This document shows positions 9,267 to 58,342 of a stretch of 64,000 nucleotides of DNA, piece after piece. Source of the DNA: Zootoca vivipara (lineage: Eukaryota). The stretch spans positions 35,836,001 through 35,900,000 of the forward strand of contig NC_083292.1 of assembly GCF_963506605.1 (NCBI RefSeq), in the 5' to 3' direction. The notes below the pieces were generated by a model. That model did no database searches, was not told the origin of the DNA, and worked only from the letters and a program-made list of their open reading frames with translations. How positions within the stretch are numbered: the stretch's first letter is position 1; each line of letters opens with the position of its first letter. The position numbers and the translations under genes were made by a program.

Positions 9267-9771
9267 TGTCAGGGACTGGACTGAAGAGGAGGGCTGGGGA
9301 TCACCCCCTCCTTCTCCTCTGCTTCCCTTGGAGGAGGTGTGAGAGTGGGGGGGATCACCCCCCTTCTCCAGTAGTTTCAAGAGAAGAGGGAGACAGGATT
9401 GAGTCTCAGAACTCAGAACTTGGTTGAACTCAGAGCTGCCAAGTTATGAGGTGTCAGAAGAAGGAGTGGGAGTTGGAGAACTGCCAGCAGAGATGTCCTT
9501 GGAAAGCACAGAATCTCCACCATCCCCACATACTCAAGAGCCAAGGGCTCCAAAACATTTGACTCCTGAGGCCCCCCTCAGGAGTGTTGCTGAGCCACAG
9601 GCTGTTGCTGGGGAAGGAAGGGGAGGAGATCAGAGTGAGCAACGTCAGTATGGAGTTAAAGACTGGAATTATTTGCCTTTCACCACGATGACTGAATAAA
9701 ACCATAAATACGAACTTTCTTGTTTCTTCCTTGATGCTACTGGGGGAGGAGAAAATCCCTCGAGCCTGACA
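9267..9771 (+). mobile_element. Solo LTR (505 bp)
   Basis: TGTCAGG...CCTGACA termini, 5-bp TSD TTATA, AATAAA at 9695-9700. Confidence 0.8.
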
Positions 9772-9826
9772 TTATATGTCTTCATTAAACTTAAGGATCT
9801 CTATTCTCTCCCTCTCTCCTCATGTA

Positions 9827-10171
9827 CATAGCCGCCAAGTTCCAGCCTGAGAAATAAGGGACTGGACCGGAAGTAGCAGACCGGAAGTAGCGCTGTCACC
9901 ATTTTGGAACTGGGCGGAGCATGCTCAGAAGCTACTTTTGATGCTGCTCTGCCCTGTTTCAAAATGGCCGCTGCACCAGAAGTCGCGCTGCAGCCATTTT
10001 GGAACTGGGCAACGCAGCATCAAAAGTCGCTTCTGAGCATGCTCCGGCCAGTTCCAAAATGGCCGCCACGCCAGGATAAACCGGGAAAAACAAAAAAATC
10101 AGGTTTTTTTGGCTGAGAACAGCTGGAAAAACGGGGGTTTCCCGGGGAATACGGGAGACTTGGCAGCTATG
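9827..10171. mobile_element. hAT-like MITE with long internal hairpin (left arm only)
   Basis: TIR CATAGCCGCCAAGT / ACTTGGCAGCTATG, flanking CATGTA repeat; internal inverted repeat ~9899-9970 vs ~9992-10065. Confidence 0.75.
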
Positions 10172-10547
10172 CATGTATTGTTGACTTTTTGATTAGAAAG
10201 GCACTATCACACTGCAATGATGTTATAACATCATTCCTATCTGATTATACAGAAACATATTTGCCATAGGCAACTGATTGGCTACTTTGAGAACAGGATG
10301 CTGCACAAGAAAGGCCTTTGACCTGACCCAACAGGGCTCTCTCTTCTTCTCTTCCTCTGTCCTTTCCATGTCCATAGTTCTCACCATTAGGACAAGACTT
10401 GTCACTCCCACTTCATGCTTTTAGGTATGGGATGGGATGGGGAAGCTCTGACTCTGCAAAAGTTGTTGGACTCTAACTTGCACCAGATCCAGCAATCCTG
10501 ACCGAAGGACAGGGATGACAAGAGCTGGAGTCCAATAATGTCTAGAC

Positions 10548-11390
10548 CATAGGTAGGCAAACTAGGGCCCGGGAACCGGATCCGGCCCAATCACCTTCTC
10601 AATCCGGCCCGCGGATGGTCTGGGAATCAGCGTGTTTTTACATGAGTAGAATGTGTGCTTTTATTTAAAATCTCTGGGTTATTTGTGGGGCATAGGAATT
10701 TGTTCATCCACCCCCCCCCCCAAAAAAAAATAGTCTGGCCCACCACAAAGTCTGAGAGACGGTGGACTGGCCCCCCGCTGAAAAACTTTGCCGATCCTTC
10801 ATTAAAATTTGCCAATCTAGTATGCTGCGTGTGTTTTTGCTTTTCAAGTTTCTTGTGACTAATACTCTTGCCGCTACTATTCCATACATTAACAGCGTTC
10901 TATTTGCACTTTTAATATCCTCTGGAATTATATTTAGAAGAAACATTTCTAATGAAAGAATACTCACAGCTAGCAAAATTTACTGGAAGAATTAGAGGGC
11001 AAACGAAACAAAACAAAACAAAAAGGAATGGAGGATCTTTGGTGAATATATATTGGATAATAAGATATCCAAAATCCAAACGGCAGAACATAATTGAACC
11101 TAAATTGAAGTTAAAGGAAATATAATGAGTAAATAGAATAAGAATTGTGCGATATAGTAAGGATAATATATGTAAATTACAGAGTGAAAAATTGGAAGTC
11201 AACATAGAGAAGACATGAATGAATGTTTAATTTATATTTTTGCTTTTTTTCTATTGTTAAAGATTTTTTTGTATGTACTGTAGAATGTTTTTCTTTTCTT
11301 TTCTGTAAACATGTTGTGTGTTAATGTTTTTAAAGAAAGAAACTAATAAAAAATTATTTTTTAAAAAATGAAAAAGTTTGCTGACCCCTG
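10548..11390. mobile_element. hAT MITE carrying a nested L1 3' fragment
   Basis: 8-bp TSD GTCTAGAC (10540-10547, 11391-11398); ends CATAGGTAGGCAAACT / AGTTTGCTGACCCCTG; mirror copy at 56596-57419. Confidence 0.75.
10798..11367 (+). mobile_element. L1 3' fragment with 5' inversion (twin priming)
   Basis: ORF2 C-terminal ...LLMYGIVAARVLVTRNLK...ILDWQILM on minus strand (10798-10967), continuation LAKFTGRIRGQ on plus strand from ~10968, AATAAA and A-rich tail. Confidence 0.7.
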
Positions 11391-12145
11391 GTCTAGACTC
11401 TTGAGGGTCACTTGATATGTACCCCCAATCAAGGTGCACCAAGGACTCTTCTTGAACCCTATAACCTTCCCTGTTGTTATGAGAAATCTATTCCCCTAGT
11501 CATATGATTTAATTATGACCCACTTCCCCAAATGACAGCAAAGAGGAATCAGGAGAAGGGGCACAACTGCTTCCTTGCACCTATTTAACCCACCCTCCCT
11601 GGTCCTTTAGCGATCAGCAAAAAGTTGCATTTGGCCCCTGACAATGATTCATTTCTCTGAATGAATAACCAGTCAGGGTGCCCCGGAGAGAGACCCTGTA
11701 CTCATGTTGAATAAGAGGAGAATAGTAATTTCTAGAGGAATATAACATACTTTTTCCACACTCAATGTAAACCCTTCAGGATGCAAGAGAGAAAGATACT
11801 TCCCCCCCCCCCAATACTCAAAAAAAGGGTTTAAGACCTTGGACACCTTGCTACGAGATACTGGAGGTGGAGTTATAAAAACAAAGACACACAGGTTATC
11901 AGAATGCAGAACAAGCTTTATTGAAAAGGTCAAAGAAAAAGAAAGGATAGTTGTACAATAGGCAAAAAAGGTGCATATTGTAGATAGTTCTTGGTCTTCT
12001 CAACTTCCTAATACAGAGGGGGGAATTAAGAGGGTTCAACTTCAGCAGCGGTTGCTTGGATTCAGGTCTTCTGAACCTTAGTGAATGGATCTGTATCAAG
12101 CTCTCTGATTATCAGTTCGTAATATTATTCTCGGGTTTAATTGAC

Positions 12146-24673: not shown

Positions 24674-26643
24674 GACTTCCGGTTGGTCGCGTCACCATCG
24701 AGGTTGGAGGTCCGTTCAGCGGAGCGGACCTCGGCACTTTGAAGGAAGGGAATGCCGCTCCAGCGAAGCGGATTCCCTTTAAAAACCCCGAGTCGAGAGT
24801 CTTGGGGGCAGGTTCGTCTGGCGGGCGTCAAAAGCGGGCTCTCCCCCCCCCCCCCGGAAAGGCTCTGTTTTGAGCCCCCGAGAGCGGCGGGATCGGAGCT
24901 GCGACGCGACAGACAAAGACCGCTAACTTCAAAGTGCGACGCTGCGAAACCGCGAGGCACAGCGACCAATTCTCCCAAGATTTGGATCAAAACTGTAAGT
25001 TTGGACTTTGATTTGGATTTAAATTTGGACAATTGGCAAAGGGATGAGACTTAAAAAACGGGAGTCAGTCTCTACCCATTGATGAGCTGGAGGCAGTGCT
25101 TTAGCCCGAAGCCAGAGAAAAGGATACAGAGTTTCAAAATCCCCAAGGAAAAACTATAACTTCCCCACCTAAGGCAGGGCTAAGGGGGGAAGAGTGGAAC
25201 AATATTGACCCTGCAAAAGCAATTGAAATACGTGGGAGAAACCCCTTCTCAACCCGGGACTCGGCACCCCAGGAGATTCAGCGAAATTTTTATGAAAGGA
25301 AAGGTTGACAGCTGTCAACAATAAAGTTAAAACGGTTTGCGATGAAAAAAGAAGAGATTAATTGATTGGATTTTAAGAACTGTGAAAATTATTTTTCAGC
25401 CATGTTGGATTTTTTTTTTTTTTGGAGTGGGACTTTTGAGTCTCCATTGCTCCTTGTCTTCTAATCTCCCTGCTGCCCTTGAGTGAGAAAGAATGTCAAC
25501 ATCCGGAACATCTGTTTTCCAGAGGACAGTGTTAAAATTGCTTGGAAACCTTATAGATGGGCAACAACAGCTTAGAGCTCAGCTAAGAGACGTCAGTGAA
25601 CAGTGTCAGGAACTGAATAAAACTTTGCAGAATGAGATTAACAATGGAAAATTAATCCCTGAAGACAGAAGGCAAGAATACACAGAAGAAGAAGGAAATG
25701 CCCAACAAGGAGAAGAGAAGGACCAGGACTTCATGGATAGTTCTGATCCTCTGGAATGGGAAAAACAAGAACTGGAATTGATTTCATGGGAAATGTGGGA
25801 AAATGTGAATAGGCAAGGAAAAGAGTGTGGGAAAATGGAGGGACAGAGGGAGGGGAAGGCAGGTGCATGGGTGGTAAAATGGGAAAGAATGGGAGTGGGA
25901 TGAAAAAAATTTGAATTAAAAGTAAGGCAGGAAAAAATGGATATGGATTTTGGTTTATATTAAGGAATATGAATTTGGATTATAATTTGGAATTGCTGTA
26001 TTAAAATGGGGGAAAGGGTCTGGGGTGGAGGAGGTGGTAGTAAATAATTAAGGATAGAAGAAAATATATGAATTAGGAAGGATTAAATCTAGGAAAATTT
26101 CTTGGGGGAAGACTAGGCTAGGGAGAAAAAATATGAGGTTGATTTAAAAAAAATGTTTATTTGAAGGTTATAAGTTGAAATCAGGGCATATGAATTGTTT
26201 GTTTAGATAAATAGCTTGGGGGCCTGCTCTCCCTTTCTCCCCCGCTGTTCCAGGGCCTCTTGGTGGCAGAGAGAGGTTCTGGGGGCGGGAGGGGGGGGAG
26301 TGATAAACCAAGCTATAAAAGGAAACATCTTTAACTGCTCGTCACCCATGGGCCTACTCGTGGCAGGGGGGGCACTGTGGGTTGGAGGGGTGGGAGAAGA
26401 TGGATTTTATGTTAATTGAAATAAGAGGTAATGTGAAATGATAATGATATGCTGTATGAATTTAGGTTTAAAGACTATGAGCTGAATTGCTACAATGAAA
26501 TTGCAATGATTGAGTAGGAGAAGATATGAAAATCAATGGGGAAAGATGAGGGGAAGTCACAAAAACAATGTTAACTAAAAGAGGATGAATATGTTTTGTT
26601 TTATTTTGTAAAATTAATAAAAATTATATTTAAAAAACAACAA
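24674..26643 (+). mobile_element. Non-autonomous L1-like retroposon (~1.97 kb, left arm only)
   Basis: Starts GACTTCCGGTTGG, CpG-rich 5' region, AATAAA plus A/CAA tail, 17-bp TSD CAAATGACCTGGAAGCT (24657-24673, 26644-26660); no RT/EN. Confidence 0.75.
25493..25903 (+). CDS. Putative 136-aa ORF of the retroposon (coiled-coil-like N-half, acidic C-half)
   Basis: Intact ATG-to-stop ORF; heptad-like LIDGQQQLRAQLRDVSEQCQELNKTLQNEI; no family recognised. Confidence 0.35.
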   Translation: MSTSGTSVFQRTVLKLLGNLIDGQQQLRAQLRDVSEQCQELNKTLQNEINNGKLIPEDRRQEYTEEEGNAQQGEEKDQDFMDSSDPLEWEKQELELISWEMWENVNRQGKECGKMEGQREGKAGAWVVKWERMGVG

Positions 26644-27662
26644 CAAATGACCTGGAAGCTATACGCCGGCTCCCTCAGCCAATAAAGTGAGATGAACGCT
26701 GCAACACCAGAGTCGTCTGCGACTGGACCTAATGGTCAGGGATCCCTTTACCTTGAATCCAAATTTGAAGTCCCCGCCCCCATTGCTGAGCAGACCATCT
26801 TAAAAAACAGTGATACCTCTCTCTTGATTTCTTAGTTCTAGGCCTTATCAATATTCTCTGTTGGTAAGTAGTCCCATGATATCTCTTTCACCTTCTCCAA
26901 CATTCAAGGGTTCTGATGATATTAAGGTGGCAAGTTCTGGAAATTCTTGCTGCACTGTTAACAGGATGGTGAGCGCTTGAACCAATCCAAGAAGATATGT
27001 TTTATGGTCTTATGGTTGTGATCCTGAACTGGCTTACTTTTGAGTAAGTTGCATTGAAAGGAACTTATTTATTGGTAGACATGTATATCATTGTGCTGCC
27101 ACATAAAACAAAACCAGGAAGCCAGTGCTATGATGCAGAAAAAGTTTTATTGGGAATTTCAAACAATAAAAGTATTCAAGTGAATACTAAGCATATTGGA
27201 AAACAATTAAGCAAATATGAACGCATTTCAGCGAACAGCTTCTCGTTTAGAATTATTTTTTCAGGCTGGAGGAAGAGTAGGGGGTTCTACATTTATAGAA
27301 CATTCTTTCCACCTTCCTTTACATTAAGTCTCAATTATACATATATACACTTGGGTGCTAATTTCATGGACATAGTGAATGGATCTTGTGCTTTTCTTCC
27401 TGATGGGAATTGGTGTGCTTCAAAGAGATGTAGGCAAATAAATATCATAAAGGAAAGTAACAAGCAGGGGAAAGTAAGGTAAAATTAAACTGGAAACAGC
27501 TGCATGTTCTAGATGGGCCTGATTACAAGGGATGCAGAACACTCTCCCAGCTCCCCTTGGGATTGCCTAGGGAGTTAGGGTGCTCAGCATATCTAAAATC
27601 AGACCTAAATAGTCCACCCCAGAGCTCTTTTTCTTTCCTCCTTGCTGACAGACTGTGAGAGC

Positions 27663-42601: not shown

Positions 42602-42688
42602 CATAGAACTAAGAAATCAAGAGAGAGGTATCACTGTTTTTTAAGAAGGTCTATTCAGCAATGGGGGGGGGGACTTCAAATTTGGATT

Positions 42689-43037
42689 AAAGGTAGAGGG
42701 ACCCCTGACCATTAGGTCCAGTCGCGGACGACTCTGGGGTTGCAGCGCTCATCTCACTTTATTGGCTGAGGGAGCCGCCGTAGAGCTTCCAGGTCATGTG
42801 GCCAGGATGACTAAGCTGCTTCTGGCAAACCAGAGCAGCACACGGAAACGCCGTTTACCTTCCTGCTGGAGCAGTACCTATTTATCTACTTGCACTTTGA
42901 CGTGCTTTCAAACTGCTAGGTTGGCAGGAGCTGGGACCGAGCAACGGGCTCACCCCGTCACAGGGATTCAAACTGCCAACCTTCTGATCGGCAAGCCCTA
43001 GGCTCAGTGGTTTAACCCACAGCACCACCCGTGTCCC
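42689..43037 (-). mobile_element. Sauria SINE (intact copy)
   Basis: Head GGGACACGGGTGGTGCTGTGG, ACCTTT tail. Confidence 0.9.
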
Positions 43038-46000
43038 CAGCATTGATAAGGCATAGAACCAAGGAAATAAAGAGAGAGGTATCACTGTTTTTTTTAAGAT
43101 GGTCTGTCTCAGCAAGAGGGGAAAACTTCAAATTTGGATTAGAGGGACATTTAATGAACATTCCATTCATTTCTTAGATTCTGTAGATCAAATTGATTTA
43201 CTGATAGCAAATATCTATAAAAACTGACCACTGGCTTTTTAGTCTCAAAGGATTTAACCAATTGTTCTAATACCTCTGGTGTATTAGATGCTGGGAAGGC
43301 TGCCAAAGGCCTGAGAGAAGAGGAATGTTTTTGCCTGGCACCTAAAGATATTTAATGAAGGCATCAGTTGAACCTCCTTGGGGAAAGCATTCCAAAAACA
43401 GAGAACCACAAAAGAAAATGTCCATTTTCTTTTTGCTTTCCATCAGACCTCTCATGGAGTAACTTAAGACGAGTCTCAGATGGTGATCCCAGGTACTGGG
43501 TCAGTTCATATGGGCAGAGGTGGTCCTTGAGATATTGCAGTCCTGAGCCATTTAAGGCTTCATTGGGCCAAGAAACTAATTAGCCAGTGGAGTCAGTGGA
43601 GTCAGGAGTTATATGCTCAAACCATCCTGCCCTAGTGAGCAACCCAGCCACCAAATTCTGCACCAGCTGATGTTTCTGAACTGTTTTCAGAGGCAGCTTC
43701 TAACCTAGTGGTAGAGGCAACAGAGGTTAGGCCAGTGATGGCCAAACTTGGCCCTCCAGCTGTTTGGGACTACGATTCCCATCATCCCTGACCACTGGTC
43801 CTGTTAGCTAGGGATCATGGGAGTTGTAGTCCCAAACCAGCTGGAGGGACAAGCTTGGCCATCACTGGGTTAGGCTATCCCTGTTCAGATAGCAGCTCAG
43901 CTGGCTCACCAGCCAAATCTGATGAAAGGCACTCCATGCCACCGAGGCCAAATGAACCTCAAGTGACAGCAATGGAACCAGAAGGACCTCCAAGCTGTTC
44001 CTTCGGGAGCTATGTAACCAGGCCACCTCCCATCTATCCAGTCTACGGAACCACCCACTAACTGTATCTCAGTCTTATCTGGACTGAGCTTCAGTTTATT
44101 GGCTCTCAGTCAGTCCATTACCAAGGCAAGATAACTGCCTGGCACTTCCACTGACAAGCCTTGATATATTAATTTTAGAAACCTAGGATAAAATACTAAC
44201 TGCTGACAGACAGGAAAAATTGGGGTTTTTTGCCCTTCCGGATTTGGAGTTGTACCGTGTGGCAGCAGGTTTAGTCTGGTTAAAAGAATGGATAACCTTA
44301 AATGACCCAGAGATATTAGACCTAGAAGGGGTGGATTACCAATATGGTTTGCATTCATACTTAATATATGATAAAGTTAAAGTCCACAAGGGTTTCTTGA
44401 ACCACTTGGTAAGGAAGTCACTATACCTGATTTGGTCAAAGTATAAGGGAATTCTGGAGCCCAAGATCCCTCTGTGGGTATCACCAAAAGAGGTTGTAAC
44501 AGTGCCATTATCTTGATATATAAACGAGAAGTAGAGCTGTGTGTCATAAGCATATCCGGCACTGTGGTGCAAAACTCCCTCTGGTTCCCACCCCCACCCC
44601 CATTCCCCAGAGTTGTTGATCTTTTTCTTGGGAGGATGGTTGCAGGGCTAGAGGAGGCGGGCAGCGGCTGGAGGGCAGCTCCTCTGGCGGGGAAGAGGCA
44701 GAGGCTGGATGCGGTGCCTTCCAGCTCAGCTGGCCACTTCGTGTCGCGGTGGCAACGGCAGGCGGAGGCTCCGGGAGCGGCGCTGCTTCGGGCGAGGGTG
44801 GCGAGTTGATCTTGGCTGGCGCCACATCCAGCCTCTGCCTCTTCCCTGGCACCCTCCAGAACTTGGCACCCTGGCGCTCTGTGCCACTAGCCTCTATGGG
44901 TAAGACACCCCTGCTGAAGACCCACTCCAAAACTCCAGATAACCCCACTCAGCAGTTTCATGCAGATGTTAAACAGCATGAGGGATAAAATCAAACCCTC
45001 ACGGAGCCAAAGAGCACTTCCCAAGCACCACCCACAGGAAATCTAAGTAGGACCGGAACCACTGCAGAACAGTGCCACTCACGTTTATCTTAGGCTGGAT
45101 CTAGACACATCCAAGAAGTGTTTCACTTTCTACCACATGTGGTGGTTATGTAAGAAAATACAGGTATTCTGGGAGAGTATTCACTCAGAACTGCAAAAAA
45201 TGATAAAGATCTCCTTTAATAAAAAACCAGAAGCCTGTCTCCTGGGAATTACAGATTTGGGTATTCTGCAAAAAATCTTTTTATATGCTACGGTGGCAGC
45301 AAGAGTTCTCATAGCAGCAAAATGGAAGAGCATTGAACTTCCCTCTATACATGAATGGATCCAAAAGCTGACAGAATATGCCGAATTAGATGGTCTATCA
45401 GAAAAAAATAAAGAATAAACCAAAACAGGAATTTGTTTCAAAATGAGAGGTTTTCAAATAATATTTGAAATATGATTACAGTAGTTTAAACTCTGTTGCA
45501 GCATTCAAGGAACTTCAGTAATAATTGCAAGTTAGACATAAGAGTTATGATATATTAAGAAAAAGTTAAATTATGATAAAAGTGTGTACGTATTGGAAAT
45601 TAGTAATATGAAAATGAAATAAGGAATAGAAGGGAGGTTAGGTCTATAGTGTTAAGACCAACTTATTTTTTATTGTTTGGTAAGAAAATTTTGTGTTTAT
45701 TGTTATTCTTGTGTGTAATTCTGTATCTGAGTTTTCTTTTTTCTTTTTGTATCAATAAAAATACTTTTTAAAAAAGAAGTGTTTCAGTGAAATGCATTGC
45801 AAACTTTGCATGAGAAATCAGGTTGGCGAAAACAGAACTCCACAGCACCATCTGGTGTTAGAATGCATAAACAATGCATATAAAAACACTTTTTCTTTGC
45901 CAGTGTTCACCAGATTATGAGTCCACTGCTTTTAACCACTACACCACACTGGCTCTAAGTTATTGCTTTAGCATGGCAAGTTAGTAATTCTAACACTTGG

Positions 46001-48382
46001 AACAAAGAGATGGGATGTTTGTGTTTGGCTTGCTAGGGAAGCAACTTTAGAATATATGAAAGTGTACTGTAGCCTGTGTGAGAACTGGTCAAGGCTAGAA
46101 CCACCTATCCAACCTATTTATCACAGTATTTTGCAGGAGGGTGAAACAAGGCATTATTCCAGAAATCCTTGTCAAGATTCTGTGGAACTGCAGTAAGCTC
46201 CTATTTGGATTTTATGAATATACAAAGACATACATGGAACAGAAACTTGCAAATATTTGGACTCTATGAATGAACTGATCTATTGGGACTTCCGTTTACT
46301 TTGTTACACTTTATGTGTTCACTATGTGCAAGAGAAATATTTGATACTGTGATGAATACAGAAGAGCATTGTTTATGTGAAAGCACAGCCAGTTACGTTT
46401 TGTGTGTTTGATCCTGATCGTAGACAAAGGATGTGAAAGCTGCGGTCCTCCAGTTTGGAAGAACTACAGTACTATAGTACCCATCAGTCCCAGCAAGCAT
46501 GGCTGATAGGAGCTGTAGTCCAATGACATCTAGTTGGCTGTAGCACCTGCAGGCACCTGATCCCTGTCTTAGACAAAAACAGTTACACCCAAAGGAGGCT
46601 GTGACAGAGGTTCTACCTGTACCATTATCCTTCTGGTCAAATTGGTTTATGGGCCGAATAGGTAATGCCTTTTCTATGATTCTCCCAAATGATGGAATAC
46701 AATTTCCATTTAAATGAGAATTGTCTCACCTGTGCATTAAAAAAAAATTAAGCAGGTTTTAATTGGTATTGTTTTGAGTTACCTTTTCATAGAATCATAG
46801 AAACGTAGAGTTGGAAGGGACCCCAAGGGTTCTAGTGCAACCCCCTGCAATGGAGGAATCTCAGCTAAAGCATCCATGACAGATGGTCATCCAACGTCTG
46901 CTTCAAAACCTCCAAGGAAGGAGAGTCCACAACCTCCTGAGAGAGACTGTTTCGCAGTCAAACAGCTCCTACTGTCAGAAAGTACTTCCGGGTGTTTAGA
47001 TGGAATCTTCTTTCTTGTAACTTGAAGCCCTTGGTTCAAATCCTGCCCTCAAGAGCAAGAGAAAAACAAGATTGTTCCCTCTTCCATGTGAAAGCCCTTG
47101 AGATATTTGAAGAGGGCTATCCTTTCTCCTCGGTCTCCTCTTTTCCAAGCTAAGCATGCCCAGCTCCTTCAACCATTTTTCATAAAGCTTTGTTTTCTTT
47201 GAGGAAAGGGCTGTAGCTCAGTTGTAGAACACCTGCTTTGCATGCAAAAGGTCCCAGGATCAATCCCTATCATCTCCAGGGAGTGCTAGGAAAAGGACTC
47301 CTGTCTTAAACTCTGGGAGATGCTACAGCCATTATAGACCTTACCGAGCTAGGTAGACCAATGGCCTGACTTTGTATAAGGCAGCTTCTTGATTTTTTAA
47401 CTGGGGTCATTTAAGGCTGGGTTCATTTAACTGGTAAGTTGTTTTTAAATGACTAACTTTTATTTGCTGGAATGCATGTCGATTTTGGGTGTCTCTTATC
47501 TGCTTTAAAGAATTCTTGAGCTTTTCTCATATAGTAGCTTGATATATTCTGCTTATCTCCTCTCATAATTCTAGAACTTGGGGCCATGCAATGAAGTTGA
47601 ATGTCAGAAGATCCAGGACAAGGGGTGGGGCAATGACTTCTTCAAATAGGGCATATTTAAACTACAAAATTCTTTCACACAATGGTTAAGAGATGGTCAT
47701 CAAATTGGATGCCTCTAAGACAGGGTTAGACAAATTCATGGGGGATAAATGACTACCAGCCATTATCTCTATATGTCCTCTCCCCACTGTTGGGGGTAGC
47801 CTATCTCTGAATGCTAGTTGCTTAGAAACACAAGTAGGGAATGATGCTGTTGCACTTATGACATGCTTGTGAGCTTCCCACTGGGTCATCTGGGCTGTGT
47901 GAGAACAGGGTCATTGATAAGATGGGCCTTTGATCTGATCCAGCAGGCCTACCCTTATCTCCTTGTAAGAGATGTGCCCCTAAGAGCAACTTGCCCGAAA
48001 GTGTATGCTTGCACTGATAAAAAAAGATAATGTCCCAATGAGGTGCCAAACTAAGAGAGTCAATTCAGAATGAACTTTAATGGAAACATGAAAAGTGTCA
48101 AGCAGGCAATTGTAAAAGAAGCAGGACAGGAACAAGGCAAAGGAACACACTATACAATGTGGCTCTCAACTTCTTCTTGGTCTGGAGGGTCTAGTGGGAA
48201 AGCATGAGAAAGGAAAGATGACAGAGACTCGTGTAAATGCTGTTGGCTTAGATGATGGTCCCAGAAACTCAGATTTTCCAGAATCCAAGGTGAGACACTC
48301 AATAATGGATAGGCATGATCTTCACCCATTCAGGGTCATTCAAATCATCATCACACAGATTTTCTTCAAGAGTTCAATATAT

Positions 48383-48871
48383 CTAATTGCACACACTACC
48401 ACGACGCCCCAGCAGGGATCTCCTTCCAAAGAGGCCACCCCTCCTCAAACCATAGCCCCAAGAGCTTCCAATGAGGCCATCCCCATAGCCCCACCCACCG
48501 TAACCATAGCCTCCTACGATCCCGGAACCACCAACAGCACATGGAGTGTTGCCTCCAACAGACACGGGCTCACAGCTGGCAGAGAGGATGGGCCCTGGGA
48601 TGGTCAGGACGGAGGCAGGTGGCTGGATCACGACCTCTGCTGGTGGGATCTGGTTGACGCATGATGGGGCAACTCCTGCCAGGACTCCGAGGTTGGTTGC
48701 TCTTTCAGCACCTCCATAACCATAGCCAAGACCTCCATATCCGTAGCCTAGACCTCCATATCCATACCCAAGACCTCCATACCCATAGCCAAGACCTCCT
48801 GCTGATCCAAATCCAACAGTGGGGGTGGAAGCACAGGATGGGACAGCACAGAATGGACCACAGTCAACCAT
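48383..48871 (-). CDS. Corneous beta-protein g6, 162 aa (mirror of g3)
   Basis: Same core as g3, four GGLGYGY repeats; acceptor ending 48890; ATTAAA 48081-48076. Confidence 0.95.
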   Translation of the reverse strand: MVDCGPFCAVPSCASTPTVGFGSAGGLGYGYGGLGYGYGGLGYGYGGLGYGYGGAERATNLGVLAGVAPSCVNQIPPAEVVIQPPASVLTIPGPILSASCEPVSVGGNTPCAVGGSGIVGGYGYGGWGYGDGLIGSSWGYGLRRGGLFGRRSLLGRRGSVCN

Positions 48872-49212
48872 TGTTGGGTAGAGATGAGTCTGAAACCAAG
48901 AAGAACATGGGAGCAAATGAACATGTGGAATGCCACTCCAATGGGGTATGCAGGGGACATTTAAATCAGCTGCCTTTGACAGTTCTAAAATTATGCCCCA
49001 ATGCTTGGATTCTTTATTGTTTTCTCTTCTTTTCACCACCACCCTTCTCTTCATTGTGGGTCCCAAATCCAAATACTAGCAACTCCAGGAATGTCTGAGA
49101 ATGTCATCTATCTGAAACTCTGGAGAATAGTTTCCAGTCAGTGAGGACAAAAGTGAACTAGAAGGTCCAATGGTCTATCTTGGTAAAAAGCAACTCCCAA
49201 AGTTTCTATTTA

Positions 49213-49522
49213 GAGACGCGGGTGGCGCTGTGGTCTAAAGCACAGAGCCTAGGGCTTGCTGATCGGAAGGTCGGCGGTTCAAATCCCCACGACAGGCGAG
49301 CTCCCGTTGCTTGGTCCCAGCTCCTGCCAACCTAGCAGTTCGAAAGCACGTCCGAGTGCAAGTAGATAAATAGGTACCACTCAGGCGGGAAAGTAAACTG
49401 TGTTTCTGTGTGCTGCTCTGGTTCACCACATGAACCTTGGCCAGTAAAGCGAGATGAGCACTGCAAACCCAGGGTCGTCCACAACTGGACCTAATGGACA
49501 GGGGTCCCTTTACCTTTACCTT
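49213..49522 (+). mobile_element. Sauria SINE in g6 intron
   Basis: Mirror of 18548-18858; TSD AAGTTTCTATTTA. Confidence 0.9.
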
Positions 49523-50340
49523 AAGTTTCTATTTAAACCAGACCTTTATCTGGAACAATGCATGCAGAAATCTTTCTTTCTTTTTCTTTTCCAGAGGAAG
49601 GACCATTACTCATTAACAGAACATATGTTTTGCATTCGATCCCTGAAATATGCAGGTTGGGCTGGGGAAAAATCTCTCATCTGAAGCCCTAGAGAGCCTC
49701 GGACAGTCAGAGAAGACAATACTGAACTCAATGGATCAATTTTAAGGCTGTTTCCTATATTATTACTTTCTTCGTCTGCCAAATCTTCCACGAGAACAAA
49801 TTTATATCAGCCTATGCAATAAATACTTCCCCTATGCCGACTTCTGTTTGTTTTTTATCTTCCTGATTGGATTTGCACAACTTGTGAGAGAATAAGACAC
49901 TCTCACCGCCTCCACCACCCAGGGAAACAAAAATGAATAGTTTTGAAAGAATGCTATAAGATGCAAGAAAGGAAGGGCTATAGTGAATTGTTAGAGCATC
50001 TCCTTTGCATGCAGAAAGTCCTGACTTCATTCCCCAACATCTCCAGGTTAGGTTTGGAAGAAAAACCTTCCTTGATGCCCTGGAGAACTGCAGCCGATCA
50101 AACATTACATTGCTGGACGGATAAAAACTCTGGTCTCGGTGTAAGGCAACCTCCTAAACGTTTGTGTTCAGAAGAAATACATAGAAAACAAGCCAGCCAG
50201 CAACATGGAGGATGTAGGATTCCTGGTGGAATAGCAACATACCCCACAACATAATGGAATTTTAGAGTTCGCTTGGAATTTGGTTAGCTGAACCCTCTGA
50301 GCAGTGCAAAGATCCCAACATACATACACATTTGACTTAC

Positions 50341-50427
50341 CAAAGTCTCTGAGCAGTAAAAATGGAGAGAAGGAGATCAAGTCAAGTAAAGCTGTTGGAA
50401 TATCTCAGCCCAAGGAACCCTTTTATA
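50341..50427 (-). promoter_or_regulatory. g6 core promoter and non-coding exon 1
   Basis: TATAAAA 50427-50421, ACAGCTT starting 50395, donor at 50341/50340. Confidence 0.85.
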
Positions 50428-52239
50428 CTCTTTTGACTGTATCCCCTGATGGCCCCACAGCTAACTGGGATACACCCCCTTTCCCTGAGGCTTTAATTAG
50501 CAAGCGATTTATGAATTGCATCATGCCCTCTAATTGTTTTAATAAGGAAGGGAAAACGGGGCAAAAGAGTTCACATTTCCTCTGCTCCCCACAACGCTTC
50601 TTTCCCATTCTCACCCTTTTGATCTTTGCATTCTCATTCTTCCACAAAAGAAGTTAATAAAAAAAAATTAAGAAAATGTAAAGATGCCTTTGTATGTTCA
50701 TTTCGGACAGATCAACAGGTGCTATGGCTTTGAAGAGAATTAAAGTAGCTGGAATGGCTGGAGATTTTATCAGTAGCCTACTTGACTTTCATATCCAAGA
50801 TTTCAGCTGATCATTCTGTTCACAGCACATAGCCAGTTCTTCTCTGCCTCCACTGTCAGAGGTAGCATGCCTCTGAATACCAGTTGCTGGGAATCAGAAT
50901 TGGGGAATGGGACAATGAGTTCCTGTCCTTCTTAGGGGATTCCTATTGACATCTGGTTGACCACTATGAGAACAGAATCTTCCTAATGCTCTAGCGTTCA
51001 TTGACACATAGATGTCACATACACATGTATGATTAAATGTACCCAGTGAAGTGAAATGATTTTGAAGAGTTAGCAAAAAAATCACAATTATTTGAAGCCC
51101 ACCCCCAAATAAAACGATTGAAGATATAAAAGGATAATGTAGGCAGGGATGATGCAAAACATCTGGAGGACCACCACTGTATTAGACACCACTTTCCGCA
51201 CCACTGTCGTACTAGACACAAGTCCCAACCAATCAGGGATCACATATTAAATTCTCTTGTAGTATTAGCCACCCCTAATTTCCTGAATTTCTAGCCCACC
51301 TGTGACTTGTAATGCCAACGTGACTGACACAATGCAAGGGTGAAATTTAATAACGATGCTTTTAAAAAATCCCTTGATAGCCACTTGTTTAAATCTTCAT
51401 CTTTGAGATCTGCATGGGGAATGGGGAATCCTACCCACTATTCCATCAATATGCAAGATCAGATGGGCAGATCGAAGAGCTGGTGCCTTCATGGTGATCG
51501 GTTGAGATCTGTTGGTATCCACACTGTTAGACACTTTCTGAAATGCTAAAGTTATTTTCAACTAGCTCATGTTAGACCTATTGAAAGCAATGGACAGGGT
51601 ATGCCAGGAAATGGGGAATTATGATCACATGTGGTGGAAGTGTAAATATGTACATTTTTTTTTTTTTGCAAAGGGTATTAAAGGAGATAACAGAAATCAC
51701 TGGGTTAAAGCTGACTGAAAGTCCAGAGGTAGCATTATTATCAATTTATGATGGAGTGGAAGGTTTGCAGGCTATGAATAACTTGGTCACAAATTTACTG
51801 ACAGCTGCACGACTTATTATAGCTAAGAAGTGGAAGGGGCAAGCAGAATATAAAATGGAAGAATGGTCTATATGGGATATAGCTGTTAATGATAAATTAA
51901 CGTGTCATTGAGGTAAGACGGGAAATATACAGGAGAAATTATTTTGAGGAAATATGGAGGGTGTTTGTAGAATTTGTACTGTTAAAACAGAAAGGGGTCA
52001 AACCATCACAAGAGGTGTTGAAATTTTGGGAGGTTGGATAGTTACAATGGGATGGTCTCAGTGGTGGGGTGCACATTTTTATTCTTATTTATTTATGAAT
52101 ATTACATTGTAGAAGAAGAAGAAGAAGAAGAAGAAGAAGAAGAAGAAGAAGAAGAAGAAGAAGAAGAAGAAGAAGAAGAAGAAGAAGAAGAAGAAGACAA
52201 CGAAAGCAATGGACAAGTCAGTCAACATCATGCATTTTG

Positions 52240-52484
52240 TTTTTGGTTTTTTAAATTCATCTTTATTTCTTATTAAAAAATCACAAATCCACACAAATCA
52301 ACACAATATAACATAACATAACATAATCAAACATAATCAATAATAAACACATCAACACATCAAGAAAAAGGAAAAAAAAACAAAAATAGAAGAATGAAAA
52401 AATAAAACAAAAAAGGGAGGAAAGTAACAACAACAACAAAATACAGGTTAAAAAAATAACTTCCAAACATTTAATATCGGTTCC
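52240..52484 (-). mobile_element. Short L1-type 3' UTR/poly-A insertion (right arm only)
   Basis: 11-bp TSD CATGCATTTTG (52229-52239, 52485-52495); empty site at ~15685. Confidence 0.7.
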
Positions 52485-53572
52485 CATGCATTTTGATGGA
52501 ACTTTCCTGAGAATGAGTTTATTGGATGCAACCCATCATAATTTCAGCTATGTTTGTGTGTGGCTTGTCGCTCTTAAATTAGCATGTTCTAAACTACAGA
52601 TTCGGAATACATGCCATACATTTTCTTGGCTTCCCAATATGCAAGTTTTAATTGCTTTTAAAGCTGCCTTTTTAAAAAGAAAAAAGTAGTGTTTTCTTTT
52701 TGGTTTCAACTTAGTACTGATTTTATATATCTGGTTTAGATGCTTACCATTATTTTGCTTGGGTTTTCTTTTTTTTAACCACACATGCACACAGACACTA
52801 TCTTCTATTGAAGTTGGAACAGCCCCCTCCCACTGATGCCACCCAGAAGACCACTCCAGATTAACTCTAGATTTTTGCCAGGCTGAAGGAAACAACTCTG
52901 ACCTCCTAGGACAAGTGAAGAAGATAACATATGAGCCCTGAAGCTGGATCAAACCAAAGGCCCATGTTGTCCAGCATCCTCTTTCCTGCAGTGGTCAACC
53001 AGATGCACAAGTAGAACATAGGGACCATAGCTCTTTCTCACTATTGTTCTCTTCCAAGTGGCATTGGTGCTCTCAGGTCCTAATTGTGAGTTCCCCATTG
53101 AGGCTTCTGGTTCTGCACTGGTAATACAAGATGCTGAATTAGATGGTCCTTTGGCCTCATCCAGCAGGGCTTTTCTGATGTGCTCAAGGCATTCAAGGAC
53201 ACCAATTTAATCTGATACCGGAGATGTCTCAGAACGTGTATGCAAAAAGCTTTGATCATGTCCTAGAGTCCCCTACACTGATGAAAGAGCTTTGATGATC
53301 TCCATCTCCTCCCTCTGGGTGTTTCTGATTTAAAACAGCAGATAAACTAGAGCAATTTGACTCAAGGTCAGCAAAATTAAAAGGAAGGGAGAGGGCAACA
53401 AACTGGTGTCAAGACTATTTGTGTTGCATTATTGCAACCACTTAATTTTGTGACCTCCCTCTTTTGTGCTTAGTAAAGTACTTTTGCACATGAAATTGTT
53501 GACAACTAAATAAAATGTTACGGTAGCTGGAAAGAGGCAGTCTCTTGGTCACAGGAGTGGCTGACAGAACGG

Positions 53573-53654
53573 TATAAAAATGGAAACTTCTCCCAGTTCC
53601 TCCAACAGCTTCATCTGACTCTCTGGTCTTCATTACATCTTCTCAAAGAAGCAG
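53573..53654 (+). promoter_or_regulatory. g7 core promoter and non-coding exon 1
   Basis: TATAAAA 53573-53579, ACAGCTT 53605-53611, donor CAG|GTAAGT 53654/53655. Confidence 0.85.
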
Positions 53655-54534
53655 GTAAGTCCATTTTCTAGGGGAAATGTTTCCGAATTTATCAAAAATT
53701 AAGACTAGATTGATTTTTCAGCTTCACACTTTCTAAGTGCATTTAATATGATATTGCTAGAAGAAAATCTAATTAAGCATTTTTAAGGAAGATGCGACCA
53801 GCATTTTTAAGGAAGATGCGACCAGCTCTCCATTTTCTTCCTTCCTTCCTAAATGATATTTACATATACACTTCTGCTTTTGCAGCAAAAAAACCTCTGC
53901 ATTTTACTCAAAAGTAAACTCAACTGTGATGTGCTTACTCTCTGGTAAAAAGACAAAGGATGGCTGTCTTATTTTTTCTCAAGCTCATCCCCAACTTGCT
54001 GGATAATGGTCCAGTATGTTCAAGATATATGTTGATAGCATTGTTGATAAAACATGCCTTTTTTTAAAAGAAACTTACTGGGTTATCTCAGCATTTTTTA
54101 TATTTCCAAACATCAGTATTGGGGGTAGCCAGCATAGAACTAGATGTTGTGGATTAAAACGACAAGACAAGGGGTCATTCATTAGTGGTCCATCCCCATG
54201 TTTTGCATGTACAAGGTCCCAAGATCAGTCCCTTACATCTTCAGTGGGGCCAGTAATGTCCCCTCTCTGGACGCAGGAGAGTCATTGACAATCAGTGTAA
54301 ACAATATTGACAATAAATACCTCATTAAGTATATGGCAACTAATCTTCTCATCACCCTTAGCTCAGAGGCTGCAGAGGGGAGAAGCTGGGAAAGAAGAAG
54401 CACCAGGGGAGAGAGAGCTGACAGACTCAGTGTCTTTAGAAAGCATTCCAGGAAACCCACCCACCCCCCGGACCTAGAGGGCATTGAAATAAGAGAACAG
54501 AAAGCTCAGGGGCACAAAGCACAGATCAGCCAAC

Positions 54535-54950
54535 ATTGTTGTTTAGTCGTTCAGTCGTGTCCGACTCTTTGTGACCCCATGGACCAGCGCAAGCCAGGCA
54601 CTCCTGTCTTCCACTGCCTCCTGCAGTTTGGTCAGACTCATGTTGGTGGCTTCGAGAACACTGTCCGATCATCTCATCCTCTGTCGTCCCCTTCTCCTTG
54701 TGCCCTCCATCTTTCCCAACATCAGGGTCATTTCCAGGGAGTCTTCTCTTCTCATGAGGTGGCCAAAGTATTGGAGCCTCAGCTTCATGATTTGTCCTTC
54801 CAGTGAGCACTCAGGGCTGATTTCCTTCAGAATGGATAGGTTTTATCTACTTGCAGTCTCAAGAGTCTCCTCCAGCACCATAATTCAAAAGCATCAATTC
54901 TTCGGCGATCAGCCTTCTTTATGGTCCAGCTCTCACTTCCATACATTCCA
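54535..54950 (-). mobile_element. BovB 3' fragment in g7 intron
   Basis: Mirror of 13010-13410, retains the (CAA)n tail. Confidence 0.9.
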
Positions 54951-55337
54951 ACGTAGGGGTGACATATAATAGGAGAGACAGAGGGGGTGGGGTTTCACTC
55001 AGAGCAATGACATTAACCCGAGATGATACGTTTCTAAGTCTCTCTGTGTGAACATTGAATAAAATACCTTGGTAAGAACGTCTTGTCTATCTATTGCTGG
55101 CAGCCTGCCGTGAGGGAGGGGGATTGGATTCCCTGAAGCCTGACACTTCCCTTCTTCTCTTTCCATGGTTCATTTTGCATATCTTTTATCCCTGCATATT
55201 TTACAAAAAAACCTATATCAATGGGTTTTCCATTATTATATCCATCAAAAATTATTTGCACTGTTGAATTTATCTTCATGCTGCCAGAGTTTTCAGCTGT
55301 ACACATGCAATTTTATGTTTTAGTTTCATCTTCAGCC

Positions 55338-55826
55338 ATGGCTTTCTGTGGCCCATCCTGTGCTGTCCCATCCTGTGCTTCCACCCCCACCGTTGGATTT
55401 GGATCTGCAGCTCTTCATAGACGCGGAAGTCTTGGCTACGGATACGGAGGTCTTGGCTACGGCTATGGAGGTCTCGGCTATGGTTATGGAGGTGCTGAAA
55501 GAGCAGCCAATCTCGGTGTCCTGGACGGAGTCATCCCTTCATGCGTCAACCAGATCCCACCAGCAGAGGTCGTCATCCAGCCACCTCCCACTGTCTTGAC
55601 CATCCCAGGGCCCATCCTCTCTGCCAGCTGCGAGCCTGTGTCTGTTGGAGGCAACACTCCATGTGCTGTTGGTGGTTCCGGGATCGTAGGGGGTTATGGC
55701 TATGGAGGGTGGGGCTATGGGTCTGGCCTCCTTGGAAGCTCTGGGGGCTGGGGCTATGGTTTGGGCTCCGGGAAGGGGGCACTCCTTGGAAGGAGGTTTG
55801 GGCGCCGTGGTAGCATCTGTTCATAG
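55338..55826 (+). CDS. Corneous beta-protein g7, 162 aa (protein identical to g2)
   Basis: Translation identical to g2; acceptor AG 55322-55323; AATAAA 56050-56055. Confidence 0.95.
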   Translation: MAFCGPSCAVPSCASTPTVGFGSAALHRRGSLGYGYGGLGYGYGGLGYGYGGAERAANLGVLDGVIPSCVNQIPPAEVVIQPPPTVLTIPGPILSASCEPVSVGGNTPCAVGGSGIVGGYGYGGWGYGSGLLGSSGGWGYGLGSGKGALLGRRFGRRGSICS

Positions 55827-56595
55827 GTCAATTAAACCCGAGAATCATATTACGAACTGATAATCAGAGAGCTTGATACAGATCCATTCACTAAGGTTCA
55901 GAAGACCTGAATCCAAGCAACCGCTGCTGAAGTTGAACCCTCTTAATTCCCCCCTCTGTATTAGGAAGTTGAGAAGACCAAGAACTATCTACAATATGCA
56001 CCTTTTTGCCCTATTGTACAACTATCCTTTCTTTTTCTTTGACCTTTTCAATAAAGCTTGTTCTGCATTCTGATAACCTGTGTGTCTTTGTTTTTAAAAC
56101 TCCACCTCCAGCTTCTCGTAGCAAGGTGCCCAAGGTCTTAAACCCTTTTTTGTCCAAATCAAAATTGGAGTATTGGGGGGGGGGGAGTATCTTTATCTCT
56201 TGCATCCTGAAGGGTTTACATTGAGTGTGGAAAAGGCATGTTATATTCCTCTAGAAATTACTATTCTCCTCTTATTCAACATGAGTACAGGATCTCTCTC
56301 CGGGGCACCCTGACTGGTTATTCATTCAGAGAAATGAATCATAATCAGGGGCCAAATGCAACTTTTTGCTGATTGCTAAAGGTCCAGGGAGGGTGGGTTA
56401 AATAGGTGCAAGGAAGCAGTTGTGCCCCTTCTCCTGATTCCTCTTTGCTGTCATTTGGGGAAGTGGGTCATAATTAAATCATATGACTGGGGGAATAGAT
56501 TTCTCATAACAACAGGGAAGGTTATAGGGTTCAAGAAGAGTCCTTGGTGCGCCTTGATTGGGGGTACATATCAAGTGACCCTCAAGAGTCTAGAC

Positions 56596-57419
56596 CAGGG
56601 GTCAGCAAACTTTTTCATTTTTTTAAAATAAATTTTTATTAGTTTCTTTCTTTCAAAACATTAACACACAACATGTTTACAGAAAAGAAAAGAAAAACAT
56701 TCTACAGTACATACAAAAAAATCTTTAACAATAGAAAAAAAGCAAAAATATAAATTAAACATTCATTCATGTCTTCTCTATGTTGACTTCCAATTTTTCA
56801 CTCTGTAATTTACATATATTATCCTTACTATATCGCACAATTCTTATTCTATTTACTCATTATATTTCCTTTAACTTCAATTTAGGTTCAATTATGTTCT
56901 GCCGTTTGGATTTTGGATATCTTATTATCCAATATATATTCACCAAAGATCCTCCATTCCTTTTTGTTTTGTTTTGTTTCGTTTGCCCTCTAATTCTTCC
57001 AGTAAATTTTGCTAGCTGTGAGTATTCTTTCATTAGAATTGTTCCTTCTAAATATAATTCCAGAGGATATTAAAAGTGCAAATAGAACGCTGTTAATGTA
57101 TGGAATAGTAGCGGCAAGAGTATTAGTCACAAGAAACTTGAAAAGCAAAAACACACCCAGCATACTAGATTGGCAAATTTTAATGAAGGATCGGCAAAGT
57201 TTTTCAGCGGGGGGCCAGTCCACCGTCTCTCAGACTTTGTGGTGGGCCGGACTATTTTTTTTTGGGGGGGGGGGTGGATGAACATATTCCTATGCCCCAC
57301 AAATAACCCAGAGATTTTAAATAAAAGCACACGTTCTACTCATGTAAAAACACGGTGATTCCCAGACCATCCGCGGGCCGGATTGAGAAGGCGATTGGGC
57401 CCTAGTTTGCCTATCTATG
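56596..57419. mobile_element. hAT MITE with nested inverted L1 fragment (mirror of 10548-11390)
   Basis: TSD GTCTAGAC. Confidence 0.75.
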
Positions 57420-57427
57420 GTCTAGAC

Positions 57428-57563
57428 CAGGCATAGGCAACCTTGGCTCTCCAGATGTTTTGGAACTACAACTCCCATGATACCTAGCTAACAGGGCCAG
57501 TGCTCAGGGATCATGGGAGTTGTAGTTCCAAAACATGTGGAGAGCCAAGGTTGCCTATGCCTG
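57428..57563. mobile_element. 136-bp hAT MITE (right arm only)
   Basis: TIR CAGGCATAGGCAACCTTGG, 8-bp TSD GTCTAGAC. Confidence 0.85.
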
Positions 57564-57989
57564 GTCTAGACATTACTGGACTCCAGCTCCTGTCATCCCT
57601 GTCCTTGGGTCAGGATTGCTGGATCTGGTGCAAGTTAGAGTCCAACAACTTTTGCAGAGTCAGAGCTTCCCCATCCCATCCCATCCCATACCTAAAAGCA
57701 TGAAGTGGGAGTGACAAGTCTTGTCCTAATGGTGAGAACTATGGACTCGGAAAGGACAGAGGAAGAGAAGAAGAGAGAGCCCTGTTGGGTCAGGTCAAAG
57801 GCCTTTCTTGTGCAGCATCCTGTTCTCAAAGTAGCCAATCAGTTGCCTATGCCAAATATGTTTCCGTATAATCAGATAGGAATAACCATGTTATCACATC
57901 ATTGCAGTGTGAAAGTGCCTATCTAATCAAAAAGTCAAGGAGGAGAGAGGGAGAGAATAGAGATCCTTAAGTTTAATGAGGACATATAA

Positions 57990-58342
57990 TGTCTGGCTCG
58001 AGGGATTTTCTCCTCCCCCAGTAGCATCAAGGAAGAAACAAGAAAGTTCGTATTTATGGTTTTATTCAGTCATCGTGGTGAAAGGCAAATAATTCCAGTC
58101 TTTAACTCCATACTGACGTTGCTCACTCTGATCTCCTCCCCTTCCTTCCCCAGCAACAGCCTGTGGCTCAGCAACACTCCTGAGGGGGGCCTCAGGAGTC
58201 AAATGTTGTTGAGCCCTTGGCTCTTGAATTCTCGTTGAGCGGCGAGTATGTGGGGATGGTGGAGATTCTGTGCTTTCCAAGGACATCTCTGCTGGCAGTT
58301 CTCCAACTCCCACTCCTTCTTCTGACACCTCATAACTTGGCA
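57990..58342 (-). mobile_element. 5'-truncated copy of the 9267-9771 solo LTR, now in the g8 3' UTR
   Basis: Reverse complement of 9437-9771; AATAAA at 58066-58061. Confidence 0.8.

Follow-up and report, generated by a model that had tools for sequence, protein, structure and literature searches.

The palindrome at positions 9437–58342 of the window (the whole 64,000-nucleotide stretch of Zootoca vivipara DNA analyzed here) is half of a double inverted duplication. In the assembly, the segments follow one another in the order A-B-G-S-G'-B'-A'/G-S'-G'-B2, where the slash marks a novel junction; this order constitutes two interlocked palindromes, P1 and P2, in which a 713-bp coding block, G, occurs four times. 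There was no N between 9437 and 70148. We consider it probable that a single event, with two template switches in the course of DNA repair or replication, produced the double inverted duplication. The segments are as follows.

9437–28299, plus strand: left arm of P1, consisting of A (9437–26998), B (26999–27586), and G (27587–28299).
28300–39381, plus strand: segment S (the "spacer"), in which g4 and g5 have their promoters and first exons; it is the core of the P2 left arm.
39382–58342, minus strand: right arm of P1, made up of the inverted copies G', B', and A'; it ends within a dispersed repeat that is cut short at the novel junction.
58340–58342, unstranded: novel junction jct2, where the end of A' is fused to the start of G via the 3-bp microhomology GCA.
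58340–64000, minus strand: right arm of P2 (G, then S'), which extends past the window to approximately 70148–70393.

Self-BLAST and an anchored alignment agreed with the first-pass annotation that 9437–28299 and 39382–58342 are inverted copies, and placed both ends of the arms at the same coordinates. Self-BLAST produced a chain of minus-strand matches from 9437–9821/58342–57940 through 26835–28299/40856–39382 with 90–97% identity. The arms are approximately 19 kb long, of which 15.9 kb was aligned, with 325 substitutions in 15,910 aligned sites (2.0%). The identity of 97–98% estimated earlier is thus correct for substitutions only; once the 53 indels, with a sum of 6,004 bp, were counted, 15,585 of 21,914 columns (71%) were identical. 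The left arm is probably the source copy, since the dispersed repeat at its left end continues past 9437.

The structure had been regarded as a single palindrome around an 11-kb spacer, but the spacer itself is duplicated in inverted orientation beyond 58342. The P2 left arm occupies approximately 26999–40105, and S', the inverted second copy of S, lies at 59052–68847; beyond the window, the end of S' at 68847 is followed by G' with gene g9 (68848–69559) and then by flank B2. B and G (approximately 26644–28299) form an inverted repeat pair with 70393–68848, with S between them and a divergence of 6.7% in B and 2% in G. A and B are present twice, S twice, and G three times in addition to the partner repeat containing g9. 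Relative to a presumed single-copy ancestor, this is a duplicated-triplicated-duplicated pattern in which the middle copy is inverted, and the triplicated part is only 713 bp. The P2 right arm begins exactly at the end of the P1 right arm, and one non-homologous junction suffices.

The Pfam Keratin domain (PF02422) scored above the cut-off in all eight corneous beta-protein (CBP) coding exons of the window, and two other open reading frames tested scored below it. A TATA box, a non-coding first exon, and a single coding exon make up the CBP gene plan given in the accessible part of PMC11431283. This plan appeared to fit the present genes, as judged from sequence alone: the TATA-exon 1-GTAAG pattern was found in 21 of 24 genes tried, g1–g9 included. 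The coding exons within the palindromes are listed below.

12146–12634, minus strand: g2, 162 aa, TATA at 14293, beta-type exon 1, protein identical to that of g7.
19189–19614, plus strand: g3, 141 aa, TATA at 17649, alpha-type exon 1, sister of g6.
27663–28172, minus strand: g4, 169 aa, TATA at 29528, protein identical to that of g9, g9-type promoter.
39508–40029, plus strand: g5, 173 aa, TATA at 37728, promoter and exon 1 identical to those of g8.
48383–48871, minus strand: g6, 162 aa, TATA at 50427.
55338–55826, plus strand: g7, 162 aa, TATA at 53573.
58416–58925, minus strand: g8, 169 aa, TATA at 60867.

Three pairs of CBP exons had been proposed to be duplicated between the arms. Whereas g2/g7 and g3/g6 are true arm-to-arm duplicates, g4 and g5 are not sister copies: their promoters and first exons showed 62% identity, compared with 100% for g5/g8 and 90% for g4/g9. 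Gene g4 is chimeric, with a left-type 3' flank B and a g9-type promoter, and the crossover point is not resolvable inside G. Its flank B differs by 3.4% from the g5 flank and by 6.7% from the g9 flank; a g9-type promoter together with a flank nearer to that of g5 is the chimera predicted by the two-switch model. The 3' flank of g8 is severed by jct2 approximately 76 bp past the stop codon, so that the native AATAAA signals at +512 and +590 are gone; another AATAAA occurs at +350, inside A'. Gene g8 has four private amino-acid changes and is likely under relaxed constraint. The expectation that the duplication raised the gene number was borne out by a net gain of four genes, including the chimeric g4 and the truncated g8; the doubled gene dosage envisaged in the first-pass annotation would be a further prediction. 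In the coding-sequence tree, 12 of 23 inner branches were open, and the tree was not used to order events.

An assembly artefact, in which a contig break in G was filled with a 31-kb alternate haplotype in reversed orientation, would formally yield the same layout. In its favor, long contigs in the sequencing runs crossed arm differences, and the runs had the letter of the left-hand copy at 27 of 27 checked sites outside G and high-copy repeats, among the sites listed (13 of 40 were dropped); however, this pattern is equally expected from collapsed bubbles of two paralogous arms. The junction at 58342 had been named as one place to look for spanning sequence, as a safeguard against a false inverted duplication of two haplotypes. 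The jct2 sequence, which is unique in the genome, was spanned by contigs in all four runs (X1, X3, X4, and X7; four samples of one species from two studies), with 0, 0, 2, and 2 differences, respectively, and haplotype misassembly is therefore unlikely. The depth of the jct2 contig relative to that of an other-locus contig in the same run, taken only as a hint of copy number, was about equal (19 vs 18.9, 38.4 vs 29.8, 49.3 vs 48.6, and 6.8 vs approximately 6–8). Contigs beside the jct2 contigs carried an 18-bp sequence exclusive to A', and the ancestral flanks of both junction partners were present in these runs as loose contig ends. Both junctions lie in cis in the assembly; the DNA support from other samples consists of short-read contigs, which cover only about 200 bp of A'-type sequence next to jct2 and not the 49-kb structure. 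We regard the artefact as very improbable and already largely refuted. The arms had also been considered as two falsely duplicated alleles, because the runs first looked single-copy; this was overturned by jct2 in the four runs, and collapsed bubbles of the paralogous arms explain the earlier pattern. In the relative X15, at a distance of approximately 6–9%, one contig ran unbroken from flank sequence into G, and X15 seems to be without the junction. Three substitutions private to g8 lie within 19 bp of jct2. They were considered as a signature of error-prone synthesis, and this was rejected since two of them (58353 and 58358) are ancestral in X4 and X7.

The polarity of the event is indicated by the repeat that is cut at 58342 and continues at 9437, and by the unbroken X15 contig. 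In the two-switch model, the ancestor would have been A-B-gL-S'-gR-B2, with gL and gR as an old pair of genes arranged head-to-head and having unlike promoters. Gene conversion would have kept their coding exons near-identical, giving an inverted repeat of 1.3–1.7 kb with copies approximately 10–11 kb apart. A fork broken in gL would then have entered gR on the other strand and run backward for approximately 31 kb, copying S, gL, B, and A. The putative site of this first switch is as follows.

27554–28299, unstranded: candidate homologous switch site jct1, lying within homology in the homogenized part of the old inverted repeat; its position is putative.

In the second step, synthesis would have switched back, at the 3' end of gL, to the strand it had left, via the 3-bp microhomology at 58340–58342, where the junction itself is observed. 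The product observed in the assembly is A-B-g4-S-g5-B'-A'/g8-S'-g9-B2. Four genes would have been added with strand alternation kept, and the arms would afterwards have drifted by approximately 2%, gained separate insertions, and swapped a few short conversion tracts.

DUP-TRP/INV-DUP rearrangements have been described from patients. The layout of the product is that of DUP-TRP/INV-DUP conformer 1, except that the triplication covers just 713 bp of the repeat; the present orientation of S would fit conformer 1 and conformer 3 with a later inversion alike. In the available text of PMC11293582, human conformer 1 at the MECP2 and PLP1 loci likewise has a first switch inside an inverted repeat pair that yields a chimeric repeat, duplication of what lies between the repeats, short microhomology at the second junction, and a first duplication, triplication, and last duplication that are all inverted. 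The same text reports junction microhomology of 1–9 bp in 14 of 24 human cases, and a smallest repeat pair of 926/917 bp with 98.12% identity, which is near the repeat size found here. The human structures are de novo or familial disease alleles, whereas the lizard structure is apparently common to all sampled animals and about 2% old. It also differs in that the second junction lies inside the repeat, so that only 713 bp is triplicated, and in that the repeat itself is the gene pair.

If A-B-G-S-G' had been triplicated in inverted form by an ODIRA-type route, leaving two palindromic junctions that each lost one arm to a later deletion, the outcome would be the layout seen here, microhomology junction included; this route has been proposed for all DUP-TRP/INV-DUP in the part of PMC10766186 available. 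It requires two extra deletions to reach the same end state as the two-switch model, and the sequence showed no trace of a palindromic junction with close spacing; we consider this route improbable.

Divergence was 1.7% for A/A', 2.3% for S/S', 2.1% for g5/g8, and 2.0% for g4/g9, so the ages of the duplicated segments roughly agree on sequence divergence. This bears on a history of two successive events, in which an older P2 arose by fold-back or by tandem duplication of gL-S-gR (with S flipped, if tandem), and a younger inverted B-A copy, P1, then replaced the sequence between the blocks. S/S' was more diverged than A/A' at all filtered sites (147/6,302 vs 205/11,906; Fisher p = 0.0055), the transition/transversion counts differed (95/52 vs 108/97), and a head-to-head pair upstream is directly duplicated (approximately −57 to −44 kb vs −40 to −32 kb), all of which favor two events. 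However, the divergence gap was not significant in 500-site bins (p = 0.067) or without the longest identical tracts, whose post hoc, partly circular removal gave 1.9–2.1% for A/A' (Fisher p = 0.07–0.25). The copies of G form a star at approximately 2%, and the second event would have had to remove the first junction and to fall on the border of G. Two events are in our judgment unlikely, although they deserve some weight. No site in G united g4 and g9 against g5 and g8, indicating that this stretch was nearly the same in gL and gR when the event took place, a requirement of the homologous switch in the two-switch model.

The following tracts are identical between the arms or specific to one arm.

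17425–18187, unstranded: 763-bp tract identical between the arms (partner 49889–50651), covering the g3/g6 promoter, exon 1, and intron start.
22568–23032, unstranded: 465-bp tract identical between the arms (partner 45004–45468), a weaker conversion candidate.
24657–26643, unstranded: 1,987 bp of left-arm-only sequence, with a 17-bp direct repeat at its flanks.
40857–42609, unstranded: 1,753 bp of right-arm-only sequence with 67% GC, with a 9-bp direct repeat at its flanks.

The two arm-specific sequences are, from their flanking repeats, likely mobile-element insertions that postdate the duplication. The expected number of runs like the 763-bp tract is 4e-6 to 3e-4, and the tract is likely one of arm-to-arm conversion. 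Selection alone was rejected as its cause, since older paralogues are just 75–83% identical there and the tract takes in an intron and a repeat fragment; it may be a consensus artefact of the assembly. The 763-bp tract was the only clearly significant one, the 465- and 384-bp tracts being marginal or due to chance.

The reptile epidermal differentiation complex is autosomal. The first-pass annotation had drawn an analogy to mammalian sex-chromosome palindromes with conversion that homogenizes the copies. Primate X/Y palindromes, in the accessible text of PMC8327919, similarly consist of inverted arms longer than 8 kb on either side of a spacer, with genes in both parts and some conversion, but arm identity there is >99% (minimum 99%) by definition. 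The present arms are 98.0% identical at aligned sites, with 53 indels and insertions up to 2 kb long in one arm or the other; the spacer has a further copy elsewhere, the genes are skin structural genes, and there was no evident sign of sex linkage. Some arm-to-arm conversion likely occurred, as the 763-bp tract suggests, but it is patchy and far from the sex-chromosome level. The copies have not been homogenized: the arms are diverging, with 6 kb of arm-specific indels. A palindrome held near-identical by frequent conversion therefore has only a minimal probability, despite the arm length and the one long identical tract. A likeness in this respect is the palindromic duplication SD12A1 on mouse chromosome 12, an inverted segmental duplication with arms diverging without general homogenization, although it is of megabase scale with 93% identity, and the summary of PMC13688818 gives no resolved two-junction mechanism.

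Across the cluster, 20 consecutive genes alternate in strand, and two promoter types are paired head-to-head, which suggests that such events recur. We raise, with some doubt, the possibility of a self-renewing ratchet, in which conversion matches only the coding exons of two ancient head-to-head promoter types and every newly matched pair then serves as the inverted repeat that sets off a further DUP-TRP/INV-DUP amplification. In the available texts on the flip/flop of Saccharomyces chromosome XIV (PMC9731477) and on squamate Scfn1/Scfn2 (PMC7393497), opposed gene copies are likewise kept alike by recurrent homogenization, which keeps an inverted repeat ready for rearrangement, as here. Those systems involve inversion or conversion of one pair, whereas the lizard array of such pairs seems to have gained four genes by amplification. 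A literature search, with subscription journals mostly outside its scope, yielded no publication describing such an arrangement among lizard CBP genes, for which cluster maps are in figures, and none on fixed DUP-TRP structures in gene families. The accessible text of PMC5366951, PMC7393497, and PMC11431283 contains no statement on alternating CBP orientation; figures or supplements that map CBP genes may show it.

Taken as a palindrome alone, the structure would be an ordinary young segmental duplication. A copy shared across a wild species and known to the base would make the two-switch error a route of gene-family growth, with four genes in one step. If true, the ratchet would account for 20 strictly alternating genes, and the locus would be a natural example, fixed and datable, of a structural gene family built through a rearrangement mechanism known from human disease. 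The structure would also offer a testable reason for the expansion of the reptile skin-protein cluster and its poorly resolved phylogenies: the coding exons of neighbors would be homogenized, while the promoters keep the true history.

All eight keratin-like open reading frames (ORFs) of the window matched Pfam PF02422, and a profile search of the 464 kb around it gave 35 keratin-like ORFs; the region is a reptile corneous beta-protein (CBP) gene cluster, probably that of a lizard. The assembly comprises 1.44 Gb in 48 contigs, and coordinates outside 1–64000 continue the window numbering. Self-BLAST recovered the inverted duplication proposed in the first-pass annotation, with the same ends (9437–28299 against 39382–58342; hereafter P1). 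Its left arm consists of segments A (9437–26998), B and G (from 27587), and its right arm reads G'-B'-A'. The 15,910 aligned sites contained 325 substitutions between the arms. Indels numbered 53 and totaled 6 kb, and 71% of the alignment columns were identical. Several indels were bounded by direct repeats of 9–17 bp (e.g. 24657–26643, 40857–42609, and 57428–57571) and look like later insertions.

Probable insertions and hairpin-shaped elements in and near the P1 arms
24657–26643: 1,987-bp insertion inside an older repeat, left arm only, 17-bp flanking direct repeat
40857–42609: 1,753-bp insertion, 67% GC, right arm only, 9-bp flanking direct repeat, short similar ends
57428–57571, 59693–59836, 24167–24303, 28936–29106, 9899–10062: short hairpin-shaped elements, 140–360 bp

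A 136-amino-acid ORF in the 1,987-bp insertion (25493–25903) had no Pfam match. The two 144-bp hairpin-shaped elements (57428–57571 and 59693–59836) were arm-specific insertions, and each occurs approximately 40 times across the 464 kb.

The spacer of P1, S (28300–39381), is not unique; it is the core of a second palindrome (P2) and was copied again in inverted orientation, approximately 26999–40105 pairing with 70148–58340. The right arm of P2 starts where that of P1 ends, and the overall layout is A-B-G-S-G'-B'-A' followed directly by G-S'-G'-B2, where S' is the second copy of S and B2 the outer flank. G (713 bp) contains 127 bp of intron, the coding exon and the start of the 3' UTR, and its four copies belong to g4, g5, g8, and g9. 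Within G these formed a star at approximately 2%, with no site placing g4 and g9 against g5 and g8; beyond 28299 there was a sharp split between g4 plus g9 and g5 plus g8. In flank B, g9 was the outlier (6.7% from g4), and g4 and g5 differed by 3.4%. Promoter and exon 1 identity was 100% for g5/g8, 90% for g4/g9, and 62% for g4/g5. From these promoter/exon 1 and flank groupings, g4 and g5 are an old head-to-head pair and not, as had been proposed, duplicates made by P1. Flank B had 11 differences private to g4, and ten of them were clustered at 27030–27216, where g5 equals g9, possibly a conversion tract between the flanks of g5 and g9. The transition/transversion ratio was lower for the P1 arms (9437–26998 vs 40694–58342: 108/97) than for S/S' (95/52).

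The sole non-homologous junction lies at 58340–58342, where a 3-bp microhomology, GCA, connects a dispersed repeat, here truncated, with the first bases of G. This junction occurred once in the genome. We screened 23 sequencing runs, in which the largest share of sampled words in any run was 0.68. In all four runs assembled around it (four samples, two studies; region 58100–58500), contigs spanned the junction itself, as distinct from the whole 49-kb structure, with 0, 0, 2, and 2 differences, which makes a false inverted duplication assembled from two haplotypes unlikely. Contigs neighboring the junction carried an 18-bp sequence specific to A'. For each of the two junction partners, the ancestral flank was seen as a loose contig end. 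The junction depth was close to that of an other-locus contig in the same run, which gives a hint that the junction is homozygous. In long contigs, all 27 sites checked had the letter of the left copy (40 sites were listed, of which 13 were dropped; a further 295 lay beyond the listing); that the region is single-copy in the runs was rejected, given the spanning contigs in 4/4. The inverted duplication is real, and its structure is more complex than first described. Two substitutions in the g8 3' UTR, 58353 and 58358, were polymorphic, being carried by runs X1 and X3 and absent from X4 and X7. In a relative 6–9% distant (four pieces listed), one contig entered G unbroken, and the duplication therefore probably postdates the divergence of the two.

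The layout, the junction at 58340–58342, the chimeric make-up of g4, and the polarity of the cut repeat were observed. The product equals an ancestor, A-B-gL-S'-gR-B2 (gL and gR being the left and right genes of a head-to-head pair), plus an inserted reverse complement of A-B-gL-S', and the observed layout is conformer 1 of DUP-TRP/INV-DUP. In the available text of PMC11293582, this conformer arises by a homologous switch into the second inverted repeat, reverse copying, and then a microhomology switch. Starting from the ancestor that we infer, A-B-gL-S'-gR-B2, a homologous switch from the first into the second inverted repeat would have led to reverse copying, and a second switch, by microhomology, would have occurred at 58340–58342, so that both duplications would stem from a single event that would keep strand alternation. 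Dating is the weakest part of the single-event reading: at filtered sites, A/A' diverged by 1.72% and S/S' by 2.33% (p 0.0055), and the locus may have originated in two steps. The gap was non-significant in 500-site bins (p 0.067) and when the longest identical tracts, between two and four of them, were removed (p 0.07–0.25). The locus may also be an eroded ODIRA triplication, as that process appears in the available text of PMC10766186.

Conversion between the P1 arms is patchy. One 763-bp tract was identical between them (expected longest run, 262 bp; 99th percentile, 433), and 4e-6 to 3e-4 runs of that length were expected. According to the available text of PMC8327919, primate X palindromes are defined at ≥99% arm identity and have a mean divergence <0.2%; P1 is far from both values and, contrary to the analogy drawn earlier, lies outside the sex-chromosome palindrome class.

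The ORFs of all copies were intact. There was one synonymous difference in g2/g7; four synonymous and two replacement differences and one repeat indel in g3/g6; and nine synonymous and no replacement differences in g4/g9. These counts point to purifying selection. Four private replacements were found in g8, which has lost the AATAAA signals at +512/+590 kept in g4, g5, and g9 and had an AATAAA at +350 in A'. Glycine-rich coding repeats varied in number between sisters: g6 had three 21-bp units more than g3 (19279 vs 48719–48781), and g5 had one 12-bp unit (39627–39638) more than g4, g8, and g9.

For cluster gene order, 31 genes with a recognized start were used, four of the 35 profile matches being dropped; 20 consecutive genes (−56945 to 101672) alternate strand (p ~1e-5). 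The subfamily including g1–g3, g6, and g7 had two promoter types (51–58% identity between, 71–100% within types), and each of its six head-to-head pairs combined one of each, with coding exons 86–96% identical; in one tail-to-tail pair of the two types they were 98% identical. Eight of the 11 head-to-head pairs had a block of 89–97% identity that started abruptly 73–127 bp upstream of the ATG; it was absent in g2/g3, g6/g7, and 131714/141492. We read the block as conversion confined to the 3' flank and coding exon. The orientation of the g2/g3 pair is opposite to that of the four upstream pairs, which we read as left behind by an inversion, or an inverted duplication, of older date. An upstream quartet came from direct duplication of a head-to-head pair (approximately −57400 to −32200, 92–97% identity), with an inverted repeat across genes and 3' flanks; therefore, some cluster expansions are not inverted. 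Another quartet, at 75291–102774, consists of two inverted pairs with 96–98% coding identity, and no long intergenic match for it was among the matches listed.

In the available text of PMC11431283, gene conversion was proposed in general terms for wall-lizard epidermal gene families. No description of the present arrangement was found in the available text of the literature searched, figures and supplements lying outside its coverage. As far as their available texts go, the yeast flip/flop region (PMC9731477), squamate Scfn1/Scfn2 (PMC7393497), and mouse SD12A1 (PMC13688818) are close in spirit to this locus. The likeness to DUP-TRP/INV-DUP lies in how the rearrangement works: four of six listed features are present here, and the other two, one origin for both duplications and both junctions in cis on a single molecule (as in the assembly), may be. 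The locus is a new form of this known rearrangement type.
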